64,000 nucleotides of DNA from an uncultured bacterium. Lineage in GTDB: Bacteria > Bipolaricaulota > Bipolaricaulia > UBA7950 > UBA9294. Location: contig CAIOGO010000020.1 in NCBI GenBank assembly GCA_903857865.1, forward strand, positions 43,064 through 107,063. The letters are read 5' to 3'. The translations under genes and the position numbers were made by a program. Positions 36,111 to 46,081 of this stretch are shown in pieces. How positions within the stretch are numbered: the first letter of the stretch is position 1; each line of letters begins with the position of its first letter. The notes beneath the pieces are model-generated. The model was not told the origin of the DNA. It saw only the letters and a program-made list of their open reading frames with translations, and searched no databases.

Positions 36111-36181
36111 TGGGAGATCGTTCAATGGCAGGACAGCAGGCTCTGGCCCTGTTAATGGGGGTTCGAATCCTCCTCTCCCAA
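36111..36181 (+). tRNA. tRNA-Gln (anticodon CUG)
   Basis: Manual fold: 7-bp acceptor TGGGAGA/TCTCCCA, D-arm GTTC-AATGGCA-GGAC, anticodon arm GCAGG-CTCTGGC-CCTGT with CTG centred after U33, T-arm GGGGG-TTCGAAT-CCTCC; no encoded CCA. Confidence 0.85.
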
Positions 36182-36226
36182 AAGGGAACCCTGAGGAGAT
36201 CCTCCTTCTCAGGGTTCCCTTTTGGG
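36182..36226 (+). terminator. Intrinsic-terminator-like hairpin directly after tRNA-Gln
   Basis: Perfect 15-bp inverted repeat AAAGGGAACCCTGAG / CTCAGGGTTCCCTTT with 12-nt loop followed by TTTTGGG. Confidence 0.5.
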
Positions 36227-39848: not shown

Positions 39849-40958
39849 TCAGCCTTCGGGGGATAGGTCCGTTCTAGGGTCGGTCTTCGCGAGGGCGGCC
39901 TCGAGTTCGCCGAGGAGCTCGGCGATGAGGTCCTTGACCGAGACGATCTTGTCGATCCGGTGGGCGTTCTGCCCACAGAAGACGAGGCCGTGGTCCACGT
40001 CTCCCCGACAGGCGTTCAGAAGGGCCTGGGCGATGCAGAACTTGGCCTCCGCGACCTTGCAGGCGGTCAGGCAATGGTACGGGCAATGGACCTGCGGAGG
40101 GTCCGCCTTCTCGAGGTCTACTAGAAACTTGTTCCGGATGGCGCGCCCAGGGAGACCGACGGGGCTCTTGATGATGACAATGTCCTCTTCCCTGGCGTCG
40201 AGATAGGTCTGCTTAAAGGCTTTGGCGGCATCACACTCCCAGGTGCAGACGAATCTCGTGGCCATCTGGACTCCGGATGCGCCAAGCCGCAGCATGCGGG
40301 CGATGTCGTGCCCGTCGTAGATGCCCCCAGCGGCGATGACCGGGATCGCCTTACCGTGGCGCTCTTCGTAAGGCTTCACGGTCTCTAGCACCTGGGGCAC
40401 GAGGGTCTCGAGTGCGAAGTCCTCCACATGCTGGAGTTCATCGCGGGAGAATCCGAGGTGTCCTCCTGCGAGGGGGCCCTCGAGGATGAAAGCGTCGGCG
40501 GTCCTCTCGTAGCGCTTCGCCCAAGCGCGAAGGATCAGGTCTGCGGCGCGAGCTGAGCTGACGATGGGAACGAGGTTCACCGAGGGGTCCGGGACCATCT
40601 CGGGCAGCCGCATCGGAAGACCTGCGCCAAAGACAATCATCTTGATGCCTTCTTCGACGGCCGTCTCCACAAGAACCTCGACGTTCCTGACTGCGCCCAT
40701 GAAGTTGACCGCGAGGATCCCCTGGGTCATGGATCGTGCCTTGCGGATCTCCGCCCGCAAGGCCTCGCAGGAGACGCGCTCGTAGTCCCGCGCGCCCCGC
40801 TCGAGATCGCCGAGCCCGATGCTGGAGATCGTGCCGATGCCGCCTTCCTCAGCCACTGCCGCAGCGAGGGACGCCATCGAGATCCTGACCCCCATCCCCC
40901 CTTGGACGATGGGGATATCGGCAATGAGGTCTCCGATACGAAGCTTTGGGATGCTCAT
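39849..40958 (-). CDS. Enoyl-[ACP] reductase FabK-like / nitronate monooxygenase family flavoprotein
   Basis: IVQGGMG N-terminal motif, AAGGI.DG FMN-binding region; RBS AAGGAAGAGAGG before ATG at 40958; ATGA overlap with upstream KAS gene. Confidence 0.8.
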   Translation of the reverse strand: MSIPKLRIGDLIADIPIVQGGMGVRISMASLAAAVAEEGGIGTISSIGLGDLERGARDYERVSCEALRAEIRKARSMTQGILAVNFMGAVRNVEVLVETAVEEGIKMIVFGAGLPMRLPEMVPDPSVNLVPIVSSARAADLILRAWAKRYERTADAFILEGPLAGGHLGFSRDELQHVEDFALETLVPQVLETVKPYEERHGKAIPVIAAGGIYDGHDIARMLRLGASGVQMATRFVCTWECDAAKAFKQTYLDAREEDIVIIKSPVGLPGRAIRNKFLVDLEKADPPQVHCPYHCLTACKVAEAKFCIAQALLNACRGDVDHGLVFCGQNAHRIDKIVSVKDLIAELLGELEAALAKTDPRTDLSPEG

Positions 40959-42262
40959 AGGCACCTCTCTTCCTTGAATCGCCTGACGACGAGGCAGGCG
41001 TTCCCGCCGCCGAAGCCGAACGACTGGGTCATCGCGACGTCGGGCTCGGTGAGCTCGGCTCCTTGGGTCACGTAGTCCAGGGGGCAATCCGGATCCGCTC
41101 GCTCATAGTTGATCGTCGAAGGGATCCAGCCGGTGGAGATACTCAGCACGGTGGCCGCGAACTCGACCGCCCCGGCCGCGGCGAGCAGGTGGCCGATCAT
41201 CGACTTGATCGAGCTGATCTTGAGTTTCGTGGCGTGGACTCCGAAGAGCCTCATCACCGCCGCGCTTTCGATCTTGTCGTTCAACACGGTGGACGTACCG
41301 TGGGCATTGATGTAGTCGACGTCCGTGGGGGCAACGCCGGCGTCGCGCAGCGCTCCCTGCATCGCGCGGAGCATGCCGTCGCCGTCGGGCTCCGGCGCGG
41401 TGATGTGGAACGCATCGGCCGTGTTGCCGTAACCCGTCAACTCAGCGTAGATCGGCGCCTGACGTCCGAGCGCGTGGTCGAGCCTCTCCAACACGACCAC
41501 ACCGGCTCCCTCGCCCATGACGAACCCATCGCGGTCCTTGTCGAACGGGCGGCTGGCGTGTTCGACATCGTCATTTCTGGTGGACATTGACCGTGTCCCG
41601 CAAAAACTGCCAAAAGGCAGCGGGCTCACACTGGCCTCCGCCCCTCCGGCCAGCATGATGTCGGCGTCGCCCCTTTCGAGGATGCGGTACGCATCGCCGA
41701 TGGCGTTCGCCCCGGTGGAGCAAGCAACGGACGGCGCGGACAGAGGGCCCTTCAGGCCATGGGTGATGGACACCATGCACGCAGCGGTGTTGATGAGGAC
41801 TTTGGTGACGACGAAGGGGCCCAGAGCGCGCGGGCCCTTCGCCAAGAGCTGGGCGTGTTCGGTCTCGATGGTCTGCGTGCCGCCGATGCCCGAGCCGATG
41901 ATCACACCTGCCCGGCACCTGTCGTAGTCCGCCCCCTGCAGGCGGGCATCCCGCATGGCCAGGTCCGCGGCCACAAGGGCGAACTGCGTGAACCGGTCCA
42001 CGCGTCGGGCAACCTTCTCGTCAAGCCAGTCTTCGGCACGGAAGTCCTTCACCTCTCCAGCCATCTGCGATCGATAGGCGGCCGGATCGAACAGGGTCAC
42101 GCGTGAAATGCCGTTTTGTCCGGCGAGCAGCTTCTCCCAGAAGGCCTCACGCCCTATGCCGATGGGGGTTGCGACGCCGATGCCGGTCACGACCACCCGA
42201 TGTCGCTGCAGGACGCGAGCCTCCCCACGGCCGCTCACCGATCCCAACCCCCCGACCCGCAA
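40955..42262 (-). CDS. 3-oxoacyl-[ACP] synthase II paralog
   Basis: KAS motifs VACSTGANAIG, HGTST, GHLLAAAG, SFGFGGGNA; true start probably an internal GTG a few codons in. Confidence 0.85.
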   Translation of the reverse strand: MRVGGLGSVSGRGEARVLQRHRVVVTGIGVATPIGIGREAFWEKLLAGQNGISRVTLFDPAAYRSQMAGEVKDFRAEDWLDEKVARRVDRFTQFALVAADLAMRDARLQGADYDRCRAGVIIGSGIGGTQTIETEHAQLLAKGPRALGPFVVTKVLINTAACMVSITHGLKGPLSAPSVACSTGANAIGDAYRILERGDADIMLAGGAEASVSPLPFGSFCGTRSMSTRNDDVEHASRPFDKDRDGFVMGEGAGVVVLERLDHALGRQAPIYAELTGYGNTADAFHITAPEPDGDGMLRAMQGALRDAGVAPTDVDYINAHGTSTVLNDKIESAAVMRLFGVHATKLKISSIKSMIGHLLAAAGAVEFAATVLSISTGWIPSTINYERADPDCPLDYVTQGAELTEPDVAMTQSFGFGGGNACLVVRRFKEERCL

Positions 42263-42533: not shown

Positions 42534-43313
42534 TCACCCGAGCAGCAGTCTGTCGTCGGCCACCTCTCGCTGCGCGAAGAACTCGACGAGCTGAGGAACG
42601 CTCGCCGTTCTCTTCTCCTCTCCGGCAAGCTCGTAGAGGACCTCTCCCCTGTGCATCATGACGAGGCGATTCCCTACCTCGAGCGCCTGCGCCATGTTGT
42701 GGGTGACCATGAGCACGGTCAGACCCAGTCGCTCAACGAAGTCACAAGTCAACTGAGTGATCAGCGCGGCATTCCGCGGATCGAGCGCCGCCGTGTGTTC
42801 GTCGAGGAGGAGAACCTCGGGGCGGGCCAGCGTCGCCATCAGTACCGCGAGGGCTTGGCGCTCGCCGCCGGAGAGCAAGGACACCCGGCAATCCAAACGC
42901 TGTTCAAGTCCGATGCCAAGAGCCTCGAGACGGCGGTGGATCTCGTGGCGCAACCTGCGGGAGAGCGCCGGCCGCAGCGTCCGAGTCCCTCTCGACGCTG
43001 CGAGAGCAAGATTCTCCGCGACGGACATGGAGGGCGCCGTTCCTGCAAGCGGGTTCTGGACGATCCAGCTCACTCGCCGTGCCCGTCGATAGGCCGGCGC
43101 AGCGCTCACGTCATCCTCGCCAAGAACGATGCGCCCCGACGTGAGGGGGACGACGCCCGCGATCAGGTTCAGAAGGGTGCTCTTGCCGGCGCCGTTCGAG
43201 CCGATGATCGTGAGGAAGTCCCCGCGGGCCAGGAAGAGGCTCACCTCGCGTACAGCGACCACCGTGTCGGGACCAGAGCGGTACGTCTTGGAGACCTGTT
43301 CGATCCTCAGCAT
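42534..43313 (-). CDS. ABC transporter ATP-binding protein (uptake system)
   Basis: Walker A GSNGAGKST, signature LSGGERQ, Walker B LLLDEHTAALD. Confidence 0.85.
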   Translation of the reverse strand: MLRIEQVSKTYRSGPDTVVAVREVSLFLARGDFLTIIGSNGAGKSTLLNLIAGVVPLTSGRIVLGEDDVSAAPAYRRARRVSWIVQNPLAGTAPSMSVAENLALAASRGTRTLRPALSRRLRHEIHRRLEALGIGLEQRLDCRVSLLSGGERQALAVLMATLARPEVLLLDEHTAALDPRNAALITQLTCDFVERLGLTVLMVTHNMAQALEVGNRLVMMHRGEVLYELAGEEKRTASVPQLVEFFAQREVADDRLLLG

Positions 43314-44203
43314 GAGCTCACCTTCCGCAGCCGCCGCTCGCGGACGGCCGGGATAACGAGCGCCAGAATGACGAGAAGGGCTGTGATCAGCTTGAGATCG
43401 CTCGCCTGAAACCCCACGGCGTAGCCGTAGCGCAGTGCGATCACTACGGCCATCCGGTAGACGAGTGACCCAACCAGGACGCTGGCCGTCATCCAGCCCA
43501 CTCGCCGCGACCGGATGAGGGATCCGCCGAGGATGACGGCCGCGAGTCCCGTCACGATCGTCCCAATCCCCATCCCGATATCGGCGAATCCCCCGTACTG
43601 CGCGACGAGCGCCCCGGAGAGGGCGACAAGGCCGTTCGACAAGGCAAGGCCAAGCATCTTCATCGCGCGCGGATCGACGGCGTGGGCACTGACCATGGCC
43701 TCGTTGTCTCCGGCCGCTCGCAAGGCGAATCCGACCTCGGTCTTGAGGAAGAAGTCAAGGCCAAGCTTCACGGCCAGGGTGAGCAACGCGACGAACGCGA
43801 GGATGGCCAAGGGTCCGAGAGGCGACCAAGAGCCATCGACGACCTGCATCGCCGTCGAAGCGCGAAGCAGAGACAGGTTGGGACGCCCCATGATTCGCAG
43901 GTTGATCGAGTAGAGCATGATCATGGTGAGAACGCCGGCGAGCAGGCTGCTGATCCCAAGGCGGGTGTTGAGGAACCCCGTGACCATCCCCGCTGCCGCT
44001 CCGGCAAGGAATGCTGCGGCCAGCGCGAGGAAAGGATCACCGCCGTTCAAAATGAGGAGTGAGGCGATGGCCGCCCCGGTCACGAAGCTCCCGTCGACGG
44101 TCAGGTCGGGGAACTGCAGGACCCGATACGTCAGGAAGACGCCGAGAGCGGCGATCCCGTACGCCAGGCCTTGCTCAATCGCGTGCATCAGGAGTTCTGC
44201 CAT
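43307..44203 (-). CDS. ABC transporter permease
   Basis: Multi-TM protein tightly linked to ATPase and binding protein. Confidence 0.8.
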   Translation of the reverse strand: MAELLMHAIEQGLAYGIAALGVFLTYRVLQFPDLTVDGSFVTGAAIASLLILNGGDPFLALAAAFLAGAAAGMVTGFLNTRLGISSLLAGVLTMIMLYSINLRIMGRPNLSLLRASTAMQVVDGSWSPLGPLAILAFVALLTLAVKLGLDFFLKTEVGFALRAAGDNEAMVSAHAVDPRAMKMLGLALSNGLVALSGALVAQYGGFADIGMGIGTIVTGLAAVILGGSLIRSRRVGWMTASVLVGSLVYRMAVVIALRYGYAVGFQASDLKLITALLVILALVIPAVRERRLRKVSSC

Positions 44204-44221: not shown

Positions 44222-45226
44222 TTACAGGCTCTTCCGTTCCCACGAGGCGCCGCCGTAGAGAATGGCCGACGCTTGTTCGATGACCGCTGCGGGGAAGACG
44301 AGACCGATTCGCGCCGCTTGATCGAGGTTGAGGTGGACTTCCGCTCGCGGCTGGTAGGTCACGGGGATGGTGTCCGGGCGCACGCCCGAGAGAACCCGTA
44401 GCACGATGTCTCCTACCACGAGCCCGTGCTGGTAGTAGTCGAAGCCGGCCGCGAGGGTCGCGTGGGCCAGGCTCGTCGGATCGGCCACAAGGAACGGAAC
44501 TCCCGCTGCCTCCGACGCCGCCAGGACGGAGTCAATGGCCGAGACGACCGTGTTGTCGGTCGTAACGTAGAAGGCATCGACTCGTCCGACCAGCGATTGC
44601 GCGGCCATCTGGACGTTGGCCGACGAGTCGGCCGCCGCCGTCAGGATGGTGACTCCGACGCTCGCCGCCGCCGCCTGGGCCATAGCCGTCAGGATGGCCG
44701 AATTGGCCTCGCCCGGGTTGTAGACCATGCCCACTCTCGTGATCCCCGGACTTACGTCGCGGAGAAGCTGGAGGTGAGCAGCCACGGGGATCATGTCCGA
44801 GACTCCCGTGACGTTCTGGTTCGTGCTGGGATCGGTTGCGCTCGGCACAAGACCGGCGCCGACCGGATCCGTCACGGCAGCATAGATCACGGGCGTACTG
44901 GTCCCGCGGAAGACCTGAACCGCCGCTTGCGCCGTCGGCGTTGCGATCGCTACCACGAGAGCCACACCTCGGGCCTGGTAGTCTTGCGCGATGGCCACGG
45001 CAGTTCCCGGGTCCCCTTGGGCGCTAGCGAGGAGATACTCCACATCAACGCCACGTTCGTAGCCAGCCGCTGTCAGCGCGTCGATGACGCCCTGTTCGAC
45101 GGCATCGAGCGCTGGATGCTCGACGATTTTGCAGATCCCTATCTTGATCGGCGCGGCCGACAGACCGAGCCCCATCGCGCAACACACCAGACCAACAACA
45201 AGCAGGGCCGAAAGACCTCTTTTCAC
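44222..45226 (-). CDS. ABC transporter substrate-binding lipoprotein
   Basis: Signal peptide with lipobox-like LVCCAMG; periplasmic binding fold; RBS AAGGAG before GTG at 45226. Confidence 0.8.
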   Translation of the reverse strand: MKRGLSALLVVGLVCCAMGLGLSAAPIKIGICKIVEHPALDAVEQGVIDALTAAGYERGVDVEYLLASAQGDPGTAVAIAQDYQARGVALVVAIATPTAQAAVQVFRGTSTPVIYAAVTDPVGAGLVPSATDPSTNQNVTGVSDMIPVAAHLQLLRDVSPGITRVGMVYNPGEANSAILTAMAQAAAASVGVTILTAAADSSANVQMAAQSLVGRVDAFYVTTDNTVVSAIDSVLAASEAAGVPFLVADPTSLAHATLAAGFDYYQHGLVVGDIVLRVLSGVRPDTIPVTYQPRAEVHLNLDQAARIGLVFPAAVIEQASAILYGGASWERKSL

Positions 45227-45366
45227 GTCTACTCCTTTGCGTGTATTCTTTCGGCGGGCCCCAATGAGCCCGCCAGGGCCGTTGGTGTTTCACCCACGCC
45301 GCCCGCAGGAATTCCGCAAGAGTGCCCTGCGGGCGGTACTCCTACCTTCCTGTTCGCCCACCTCCT

Positions 45367-45405
45367 CCAAAAAGGAGGCGACTGCGGGCAGTGCCCGCAG
45401 TCGCC
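45367..45405 (-). terminator. Intrinsic-terminator-like hairpin inside the leader of the ABC uptake operon (attenuator or end of a small RNA)
   Basis: Inverted repeat GGCGACTGCGGGCA / TGCCCGCAGTCGCC followed on the minus strand by CCTTTTTGG, about 150 nt upstream of the binding-protein start. Confidence 0.5.
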
Positions 45406-45544
45406 TCTCCGGTCTCTCCTCAGCCCCGCGCGCCCGCGGCTAGTTGGCTGGGGAGAAACCGGACGTAAACCAATACCAGCAGAAGTACGATGCGCTGACG
45501 ATCCTTCTCGCGGCCATCGACCCTGTTGGAGACATGTTGTATCG

Positions 45545-45573
45545 ACTATATGCTGCATAGCGATCCGTGTCAA
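45545..45573 (-). promoter_or_regulatory. Promoter-like TTGACA-17 nt-TATAGT on the minus strand
   Basis: Near-consensus hexamers read on the reverse complement, about 310 nt upstream of the binding-protein start and about 150 nt upstream of the terminator hairpin. Confidence 0.4.
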
Positions 45574-46081
45574 TGGGTTTGCCTTCGCGTTGGCACGGGG
45601 CAACTGATCTCGCAGGCATCTTCCCGGAAGCCGGTCCACGGTCAGGATCAGGATCGGCATGAATGGACTCTGACCCCTCAGGACGATCCGGTAGAGTGCT
45701 AGAATCGCGCTCAGCGAGTCTCGAAGCTACGCAGCAACGGACAGGGAGTGGCCTCCCTCCGATCTCTCTCTACGACCGGCCAGAAAAGAGGTTCGAGACT
45801 CGTCCGCTGCGACGCGCGTCGCGGGAAGGTCTTGGGGACAGTCCGATGTACGGCTCGCCGACTGTCAGAATCTCCAGAGCGTCCCCTATCCAGCCCAAAG
45901 ACCCCAATGAGAAGGGTGCCGTTCTTCTCGGGACCCCGACGGCACACCGTCCCATGTCATTCCCGCGGCCCCACTCCATCCGTGCAGCACATCCTATCGC
46001 TGCGACCGCAGGAGATTCTCGTGCGACAGGCTCGTTGCGGTACGCGTCGGCTGTCCGGTATCCTCCGGGCGGAGGCAACCG

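Follow-up and report, generated by a model that had tools for sequence, protein, structure and literature searches.

What controls the expression of an ABC importer in an uncultivated bacterium whose DNA offers only one promoter ahead of the importer genes? We addressed this question for a locus on contig CAIOGO010000020.1 of an uncultured member of the Bipolaricaulota, using a 64-kb stretch of the contig (hereafter the window; 65.6% G+C) in which a three-gene importer operon on the minus strand is preceded by a long leader. Within the leader we found a short open reading frame (ORF) with a run of Trp, Tyr and Phe codons, followed by a hairpin, P1, that abuts an intrinsic terminator, T. The leader is probably a ribosome-mediated attenuator that senses charged aromatic tRNAs (that for Trp, together with those for Tyr and Phe) and controls a TrpX-like importer. 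How P1 might act on T is a separate matter; we tentatively propose a ribosome-gated tug-of-war, in which the leader peptide would decide whether P1, which shares no nucleotides with T, folds flush against T and blocks its completion, and we regard this step as a possibility rather than as the expected outcome.

A preliminary description of this DNA had reported a TTGACA-17-TATAGT promoter on the minus strand, a strong hairpin with a U-tract about 150 nt beyond it, two more GC-rich hairpins ahead of the ribosome-binding site (RBS) of a binding-protein gene, and an ABC uptake operon downstream. We recovered all of these (Table 1). The promoter matches the consensus at 11 of 12 positions with a 17-nt spacer, the hairpin has a 15-bp stem whose 5' arm begins 138 nt past the -10 box, a small hairpin lies between the two further ones, and the genes for a PF04392 binding protein, a permease and an ATPase are co-oriented with the leader. 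In a consensus scan of both strands between positions 44800 and 46200 this was the sole promoter-like site (shuffled sequences averaged 0.2), so that no second promoter was found ahead of the importer, and T was the sole terminator-like site in the same interval. The leader is also more stably folded than expected from its composition: the full 321 nt gave a fold z of -7.6, with none of 100 shuffles equally stable, and the first 176 nt gave a z of -6.9 versus shuffles.

In the interval between promoter and terminator lies an ORF of 31 codons that had passed unnoticed in the preliminary description. Its ATG follows the -10 box so closely (9 nt) that there is no space for a 5' untranslated region (UTR) or a Shine-Dalgarno sequence, which argues that the ORF is leaderless, or nearly so. 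The ORF encodes a run YFCWYWF. We scanned one genome per species for orthologous loci, with the binding protein as the query, and obtained 30 Bipolaricaulota/Acetothermia loci with enough upstream sequence; structural statistics are given over 31 leaders, among which we distinguish 24 of a long type (L001-L023 and L031) and seven of a short type (L024-L030). In each of the 30 loci we found a short ORF, 22-34 codons in length, whose product carries a stretch of 3-6 aromatic residues, Trp invariably among them (FYWFWY, FFWYW, FYWYWF, RWYWF, FCWYYF and SWYWFI are examples, the last with the stop codon right after the I), and in 27 of them the -10 box ends 7-10 nt ahead of the in-frame ATG. TGG and the T's that flank it are invariant columns of the alignment, and most leaders are predicted to leave the cluster unpaired. 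As a negative control, proteobacterial PF04392 loci were searched in three frames, and at most two of 47 had an aromatic short ORF, which is the chance level. Moreover, when the window and 33 Bipolaricaulota loci were searched for a leaderless promoter followed by a short ORF, only this family was found. The leader peptide is unannotated, since the gene callers used for public assemblies missed the ORF and mark nothing in the leader; the only ORF called upstream is one of 81 amino acids on the opposite strand.

Two long ORFs overlap the leader, one of 143 amino acids at 45229-45660 on the minus strand and one of 393 amino acids at 44426-45607 on the plus strand, the latter antisense to the binding-protein gene. 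The 143-amino-acid ORF has no Pfam match and neither is a gene call in public assemblies; both are most likely artefacts of the high G+C content. (Note also that in five of the seven short-type leaders GGAGGUGAU occurs inside the ORF, about 30 nt 5' of the aromatic cluster, and that L025 and L027 carry close variants of it. This motif is a near-full complement of the presumed 3' tail of 16S rRNA and reads in frame as (R/K)-E-V-I codons. No suitably spaced start codon follows it in the short-type leaders; it may cause a pause in translation or else pair with CCUC in the 5' arm of P1.)

In the predicted folds all 31 leaders share one order of elements, namely a hairpin within the ORF (P0), the aromatic cluster, P1 with the stop codon, and T. 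The 3' end of P0 falls between -3 and +4 nt from the cluster in 30 of the 31. P1 has a predicted stability of -39.5 kcal/mol in the window (median over the leaders, -28 kcal/mol) and its base is 15 nt past the first Trp codon, which is also the median distance. T has 12 G-C pairs among its 15 and a 3-nt loop; no other hairpin with a T-run in the entire window is as stable (-32.8 to -33.8 kcal/mol), and over the 31 leaders the stability of T has a median of -19.4 kcal/mol (range -12.3 to -32.8). P1 is the more stable of the two hairpins in 29 of 31 leaders. They directly adjoin in the window (spacer 0 nt); across the leaders the spacer ranges from 0 to 6 nt, with a median of 0, and in 30 of the 31 it is under 5 nt. 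Intrinsic terminators are rare in the window: besides T, there is one strong site, a bidirectional terminator at a tRNA-Gln gene. (The gene in question is tRNA-Gln(CTG); together with the terminator after it, a perfect bidirectional one, GGGAACCCTGAG...CTCAGGGTTCCC, that has a T-run on either strand, it lies within 36111-36219.)

Whether these hairpins are conserved was a matter that the preliminary description had left to comparison with related genomes, and T, as well as P0 and P1, proved to be conserved and to covary in the orthologues. We aligned the 24 long-type leaders with MAFFT and used as controls helices whose partners had been slid. For P0, P1 and T together, 82% of alignment cells were paired versus 44-54% in the slid controls, 26 of 39 pairs had changed on both sides, and the covariation score was 0.394 versus 0.14-0.18; these figures lean toward structure because the structure was derived from the same sequences, although the slid controls are still far lower. 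Pairs that changed on both sides numbered four of six in P0 (74% of cells paired), 13 of 16 in P1 and seven of 15 in T (92.6% of cells paired). Within T, a GAC/GUC core (columns 157-159 and 179-181 of alignment A1) is invariant in 24 of 24 long-type leaders while the flanking pairs covary, and a U-G wobble beside the core is kept in 17 of the 24. The invariance of this core suggests a sequence-specific constraint beyond pairing.

The spacing of these elements bears on how a ribosome would be read by the RNA. A ribosome that has the first Trp codon in its A site extends over some 12-15 nt further downstream. P1 is thus placed such that it would report ribosome stalling, because a ribosome stalled in the cluster ends at the base of P1 whereas a ribosome at the stop codon must melt the 5' arm. 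The stop codon is at the apex of P1 in most long-type leaders, that of the window among them; in L007, L008, L011 and L012 it sits at the base of the 5' arm instead, and in the seven short-type leaders 0-3 nt 5' of P1. In seven orthologues T is only about 2-25 nt from the RBS or start codon of the importer, and since T is so close, the importer could be expressed there only by read-through. Of the readings that the preliminary description offered, that of an attenuator is supported: the ABC operon has no second promoter and runs in the same direction as a leader that holds a promoter and a regulatory intrinsic terminator.

An overlapping antiterminator, the defining feature of such attenuators, was not found in this family of leaders. 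When the RNA that would emerge after a stall was folded (from the leading edge of the ribosome to the loop of T), it formed P1 and left the 5' arm of T free in the window and in nearly all orthologues. P1 and T have no nucleotide in common in the window, and in other leaders their overlap consists solely of an optional pairing between an A/G-tract and the U-run or of weak outer pairs. The 5' arm of T formed duplexes with the 5' region (left unpaired while a ribosome occupies the 3' arm of P0) that were no better in energy than those of shuffles (mean z = 0.09), and its complementarity to the region of the Trp codons and linker was likewise no better than that of shuffles (mean z = +0.56). Forcing the arm to pair, by soft constraints on five of its core nucleotides, cost a median of +6.9 kcal/mol (range 0.7-19.7). 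In contrast, the 2:3 antiterminator of Escherichia coli trpL, used as a control, was recovered as the minimum-energy fold at a cost of 0.0. (A comparison of ensemble pairing probabilities that included the 5' region was uninformative for RNA so rich in G+C, and its control was ambiguous.) These results argue against the idea that the leader is a conventional leader-peptide attenuator with an overlapping antiterminator that was overlooked, for example one that relies on a pseudoknot, on non-canonical pairing or on a slipped register between the 3' strand of P1, which is purine-rich, and the 5' strand of T. We nevertheless consider the idea unlikely rather than untenable: six alternating purine- and pyrimidine-rich segments allow many partial alternative pairings, examples being the tandem GGAGAGACC / GGAGAGGCG in the window and the GACUGCGG repeat in L015-17, and four orthologues engage the 5' arm of T at a modest cost.

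From the sequence we infer that the ORF is translated, that ribosomes stall within it, in which direction the operon is regulated and how P1 acts on T. Transcription would start at the ATG at 45535 or within about 3 nt of it, and a 70S ribosome would translate the leaderless ORF right behind RNA polymerase. P0, to judge by its position only, would probably pause the polymerase or limit re-initiation, leaving one ribosome that is synchronised with transcription. With aromatic aminoacyl-tRNAs plentiful, the ribosome would cross YFCWYWF, enter the 5' arm of P1 and rest on the stop codon in the apex; P1 would be kept open with its 3' strand flexible and single, T would fold, and transcription would end at about 45369. 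With these tRNAs scarce, the ribosome would stall in the cluster, its front lying at the base of P1 or about 15 nt short of it, P1 would fold, termination would be suppressed and the polymerase would read into the importer genes. The least certain step is the last one, in which P1, abutting T, would compete with it sterically for the exit channel of RNA polymerase. Suppression could possibly be reinforced by the stalled ribosome itself, which at the base of P1 would be only a helix width away from that of T.

We propose a tug-of-war for this step because P1 shares no nucleotides with the core of T and abuts it at 0-6 nt in the 31 leaders. It has been found experimentally that structures 0-4 nt 5' of an intrinsic terminator suppress termination without any overlap in sequence, and that a longer spacer restores termination, an effect ascribed to steric competition for the exit channel of the polymerase (bioRxiv 10.64898/2026.06.17.733018). 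The same study reports the tug-of-war architecture for about 10% of natural ZTP riboswitches, those examples having spacers of less than 5 nt and terminators that are mostly below -15 kcal/mol (bioRxiv 10.64898/2026.06.17.733018). In architecture the leaders described here agree with those examples in their spacers, in the zero overlap in the window and in the median stability of T.

Several points weigh against the tug-of-war or the attenuator as we describe them. A plain upstream hairpin barely affected stable terminators (bioRxiv 10.64898/2026.06.17.733018), and T in the window, with the energy given above, is very stable. In the seven short-type leaders the spacer between P1 and T reaches 0-6 nt. 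The stabilities of P1 and T are correlated (rho 0.62), as are spacer and T stability (rho 0.37, weaker terminators having longer spacers), in comparisons that ignore phylogeny and genome G+C. The alignment on which we counted covariation came from MAFFT, and the structure was taken from those very sequences. The invariant GAC/GUC core hints at an additional, sequence-specific partner of T. Finally, L002, L013, L019 and L031 pair the 5' arm of T upstream for 0.7-2.5 kcal/mol, and by this folding model some orthologues such as these may have a weak conventional antiterminator.

We also considered the idea that the promoter, the 31-codon ORF and the terminator form an independent small gene, which makes a micro-protein or a small RNA of about 167 nt while the importer is expressed by constitutive leak-through. 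The unit does own a promoter and a terminator, and in other bacteria attenuator RNAs, once released, and leader peptides are reported to be able to act in trans (rnTrpL/peTrpL; PMC6614838, PMC7298713). However, the leader peptides are poorly conserved outside the aromatic cluster; in L007-L012 the stop codon comes 3 codons past the cluster, and the C-terminal residues are frame-shifted or lost while the RNA helix that follows is kept. Moreover, the locations of cluster and stop codon go with that of P1, and the importer has no second promoter and, in seven orthologues, no space for one. We therefore hold an independent small gene to be very unlikely. The preliminary description had entertained an independent small RNA of about 150 nt; a terminated transcript of about 167 nt (45535 to ~45369) would indeed arise, as a by-product, and its independence does not stand, given that in seven orthologues the importer could be expressed only by read-through.

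Attenuation by a TRAP-like or other protein that binds P1 or T, with the ORF incidental, would suit the GAC/GUC core of T, which is invariant in 24 of 24 leaders while adjacent pairs covary, as well as the GAG/UAG triplets that, by eye, are frequent in the 3' strand of P1. The triplets, however, lack the regular 2-3-nt spacing of a TRAP site, the seven short-type leaders do not have the invariant core, and the in-frame aromatic cluster of 30 out of 30 loci is left unexplained, which makes protein-dependent attenuation hardly credible. Least probable of all is the riboswitch that the preliminary description had offered alongside the attenuator, with the hairpins as an aptamer for an aromatic amino acid or a related ligand: a long, highly structured and conserved leader ahead of a transporter would fit it, but there are zero Rfam matches in the window and 13 orthologues, P1 is a plain long hairpin with a variable apex sequence, and the unpaired element that is conserved best is not a ligand-binding fold but a short leaderless ORF with in-frame Trp/Tyr/Phe codons, for which a riboswitch has no need. 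(An arrest peptide of the TnaC kind, sensing free Trp at the stop codon, was rejected as well; the distance from cluster to stop varies from 1 to 9 codons.)

Table 1 Features of the leader and the importer operon, in window coordinates
Feature	Coordinates	Strand	Basis or remark
-35 hexamer TTGACA	45568..45573	-	Consensus scan; same hexamer and spacing in 27/30 orthologous leaders
-10 hexamer TATAGT	45545..45550	-	Consensus scan; box ends 9 nt 5' of the leader-ORF ATG
Leader ORF, 31 codons and TAG, MSPTGSMAARRIVSASYFCWYWFTSGFSPAN then stop	45440..45535	-	Translation; homologous ORF in 30/30 orthologous loci; TAG at 45442-45440
Hairpin P0, inside the ORF	45476..45529	-	Predicted fold; 3' arm ends at the first aromatic codons
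Codon cluster TAC TTC TGC TGG TAT TGG TTT (YFCWYWF)	45467..45487	-	Translation, orthologue comparison
Hairpin P1	45408..45463	-	5' arm 45463-45446, 3' arm 45425-45408; TAG in apical part
Intrinsic terminator T	45369..45407	-	15-bp stem 45407-45375, then C and TTTTT
Shine-Dalgarno-like GGAGGAGGTG	45359..45368	-	Directly after the U-run; no usable start codon
Hairpin H2, CCGCCCGCAGG...CCTGCGGGCGG	45299..45336	-	Fold; read-through 5' UTR
Small hairpin 45298-45280 and hairpin H3 45275-45252	45252..45298	-	Fold
RBS AAGGAG 45237-45232 and GTG start 45226-45224 of binding protein	45224..45237	-	Sequence
ABC substrate-binding protein, PF04392 (TrpX-like)	44222..45226	-	Pfam, E = 2.8e-68
Permease, BPD_transp_2	43307-44203	-	Pfam
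ATPase, ABC_tran	42534-43313	-	Pfam

The importer itself is likely to have aromatic amino acids as its substrate class, as judged from the relatives of its binding protein. The order of the genes for binding protein, permease and ATPase is the same in public assemblies. Against the NCBIfam TrpX model the binding protein scored 214 bits, and since the equivalog cut-off is 390 we describe the protein as related to TrpX and do not assign it as TrpX. Its closest solved homologues are 3LKV (E = 6e-63), 6HNI (CD0873) and 3LFT, which carry Phe, Tyr and Trp, respectively, and whose selectivity is tuned by two residues (PMC6816091). At one such position the binding protein has an Asp where VC_1101 (Phe-binding) has Ala-246 and CD0873 (Tyr-binding) has Glu-263, and the Tyr of 'FDYYQ' is kept; these residues (~246-266) were mapped through the 3LKV alignment with an assumed numbering offset of 19, in a stretch aligned with moderate confidence. 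These residues are a tentative hint that the protein may prefer a hydrogen-bond-donating side chain, such as that of Tyr or Trp. Within the same transporter family, trpXYZ of Streptococcus suis contributes to the uptake of Trp, and a T-box induces it when Trp is low (PMC9382623). (Identical copies of the binding protein are present in several public metagenome assemblies, namely L081, L082 and an ENA/NCBI contig.) Directly 3' of the ABC operon, at 39849-42262 on the minus strand, are genes for a beta-ketoacyl synthase (FabF/B-like) and a protein of the nitronate-monooxygenase family (FabK-like enoyl reductase fold), which probably form a separate unit for fatty-acid synthesis.

Beyond T, the 5' UTR of a read-through transcript holds further structures that vary among orthologues. 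A motif resembling GGAGG(A/T)G is present about 3-6 nt past the U-run in most of the long-type leaders; an ATG follows it by 4 nt in L007, L009 and L010, and a second upstream ORF driven by GGAGGTG was rejected as a general feature, suitably spaced starts having been seen by eye in those three leaders only. The two further hairpins of the preliminary description were found only in part of the family: a helix at the position of H2 is present in 17 long-type leaders, with the sequences of its arms changed on both sides, and hairpins past T are absent from 11 leaders, in seven of which T lies about 2-25 nt from the RBS or start. Because these eleven leaders do without them, the hairpins are not part of the core switch; they could possibly serve mRNA stability, provide a ribosome standby site or shield the transcript from Rho. 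Their number varies from 2 to 5 among orthologues, and a hairpin of the H2 type, GGCCCGTCCGC...GCGGACGGGC, occurs in two to three tandem copies in L016 and L031, which argues that hairpin number in this UTR is evolutionarily fluid. In the window, T (45375-45407) and H2 (45299-45336) share the pair of 8-mers CTGCGGGC / GCCCGCAG, with the arms in direct order in L001 but in inverted order in the window, a pattern indicative of hairpin duplication, and T could cross-pair with H2 in read-through transcripts. (H2 and H3 were rejected as dispersed repeats of the repetitive extragenic palindromic kind; elsewhere in the window the 8-mers occur at chance frequency and never as hairpins.)

Among known systems, the leaders of E. 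coli and Salmonella trpL (Rfam Trp_leader) and of pheA and pheST are similar in that each has a short ORF with a cluster of cognate codons, a terminator before the structural genes, and a hairpin that starts just past a stalled ribosome and is opened by one that gets as far as the stop codon. In these respects P1 matches region 2:3 of the trp attenuator exactly. The leader described here nevertheless has no sequence or covariance-model match to them. Their ORFs are led by a Shine-Dalgarno sequence whereas this one is leaderless, their targets are biosynthetic operons whereas a mixed W/Y/F cluster here precedes an importer, and the 2:3 helix of trpL overlaps the terminator whereas P1 does not. 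For Deinococcus deserti there are predictions of leaderless leader peptides (PMC4007540), and mycobacteria have polycysteine attenuators with a leaderless upstream ORF (bioRxiv 10.1101/834739); in both, transcription starts at the start codon of a short regulatory ORF that is enriched in one kind of residue and lies ahead of amino-acid-related genes. Both differ from the present family in phylum, in amino-acid class and in target (tRNA synthetase or biosynthesis genes, or Cys-responsive operons), and those reports describe neither an aromatic W/Y/F cluster nor a PF04392 importer. The trpXYZ T-box of S. suis (PMC9382623) shares the transporter family and a presumed induction at low charged tRNA-Trp by leader read-through; there, however, RNA senses uncharged tRNA, whereas here a ribosome would decode the codon cluster, and no T-box match was found. 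The tug-of-war ZTP riboswitches (Bushhouse, Fu & Lucks 2026) likewise have a stable structure 0-4 nt 5' of a terminator of moderate-to-high stability with no overlap, but that structure is a ligand-bound aptamer with tertiary structure, whereas P1 is a plain long hairpin predicted to be gated by the position of a ribosome.

The nearest relatives of the binding protein (52-81% identity) were found only in metagenome-assembled genomes of Candidatus Bipolaricaulota/Acetothermia, some of them labelled 'uncultured Thermotogae', and the next-best relatives are proteobacterial, at about 40% identity. An Rfam 15 scan of the window gave only a tRNA at gathering score; at E<=10 the best matches in the leader had E of ~1-9, far under threshold, and 13 orthologous loci gave no match at gathering, in agreement with the earlier failure to recognise a known riboswitch class by eye. 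In a literature search that does not cover all journals, we found no attenuators linked to Bipolaricaulota/Acetothermia and no aromatic W/Y/F leader peptide for a PF04392 importer. The principle of attenuation is known; this element has no known homologue, combines unusual traits and apparently lacks the overlapping antiterminator.

These findings propose, from sequence alone, both a substrate class and a regulatory logic for an ABC importer of the uncultivated phylum Bipolaricaulota/Acetothermia, and they define a new, unannotated family of leader peptides. The family joins three unusual traits: its translation would be leaderless, its sensor mixes Trp, Tyr and Phe codons, and what it controls is uptake and not biosynthesis. 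The tug-of-war model is directly testable, as it predicts sensitivity to insertions in the spacer and constitutive read-through in a start-codon knockout; were it true, an untranslated leader would be ON and not super-attenuated, and this would be the first natural ribosome-gated tug-of-war attenuator. If the non-overlapping P1 and T work as proposed, the tug-of-war would extend from ligand-bound aptamers to hairpins controlled by a ribosome, and searches for attenuators that demand overlapping antiterminator and terminator helices would miss a class of elements.

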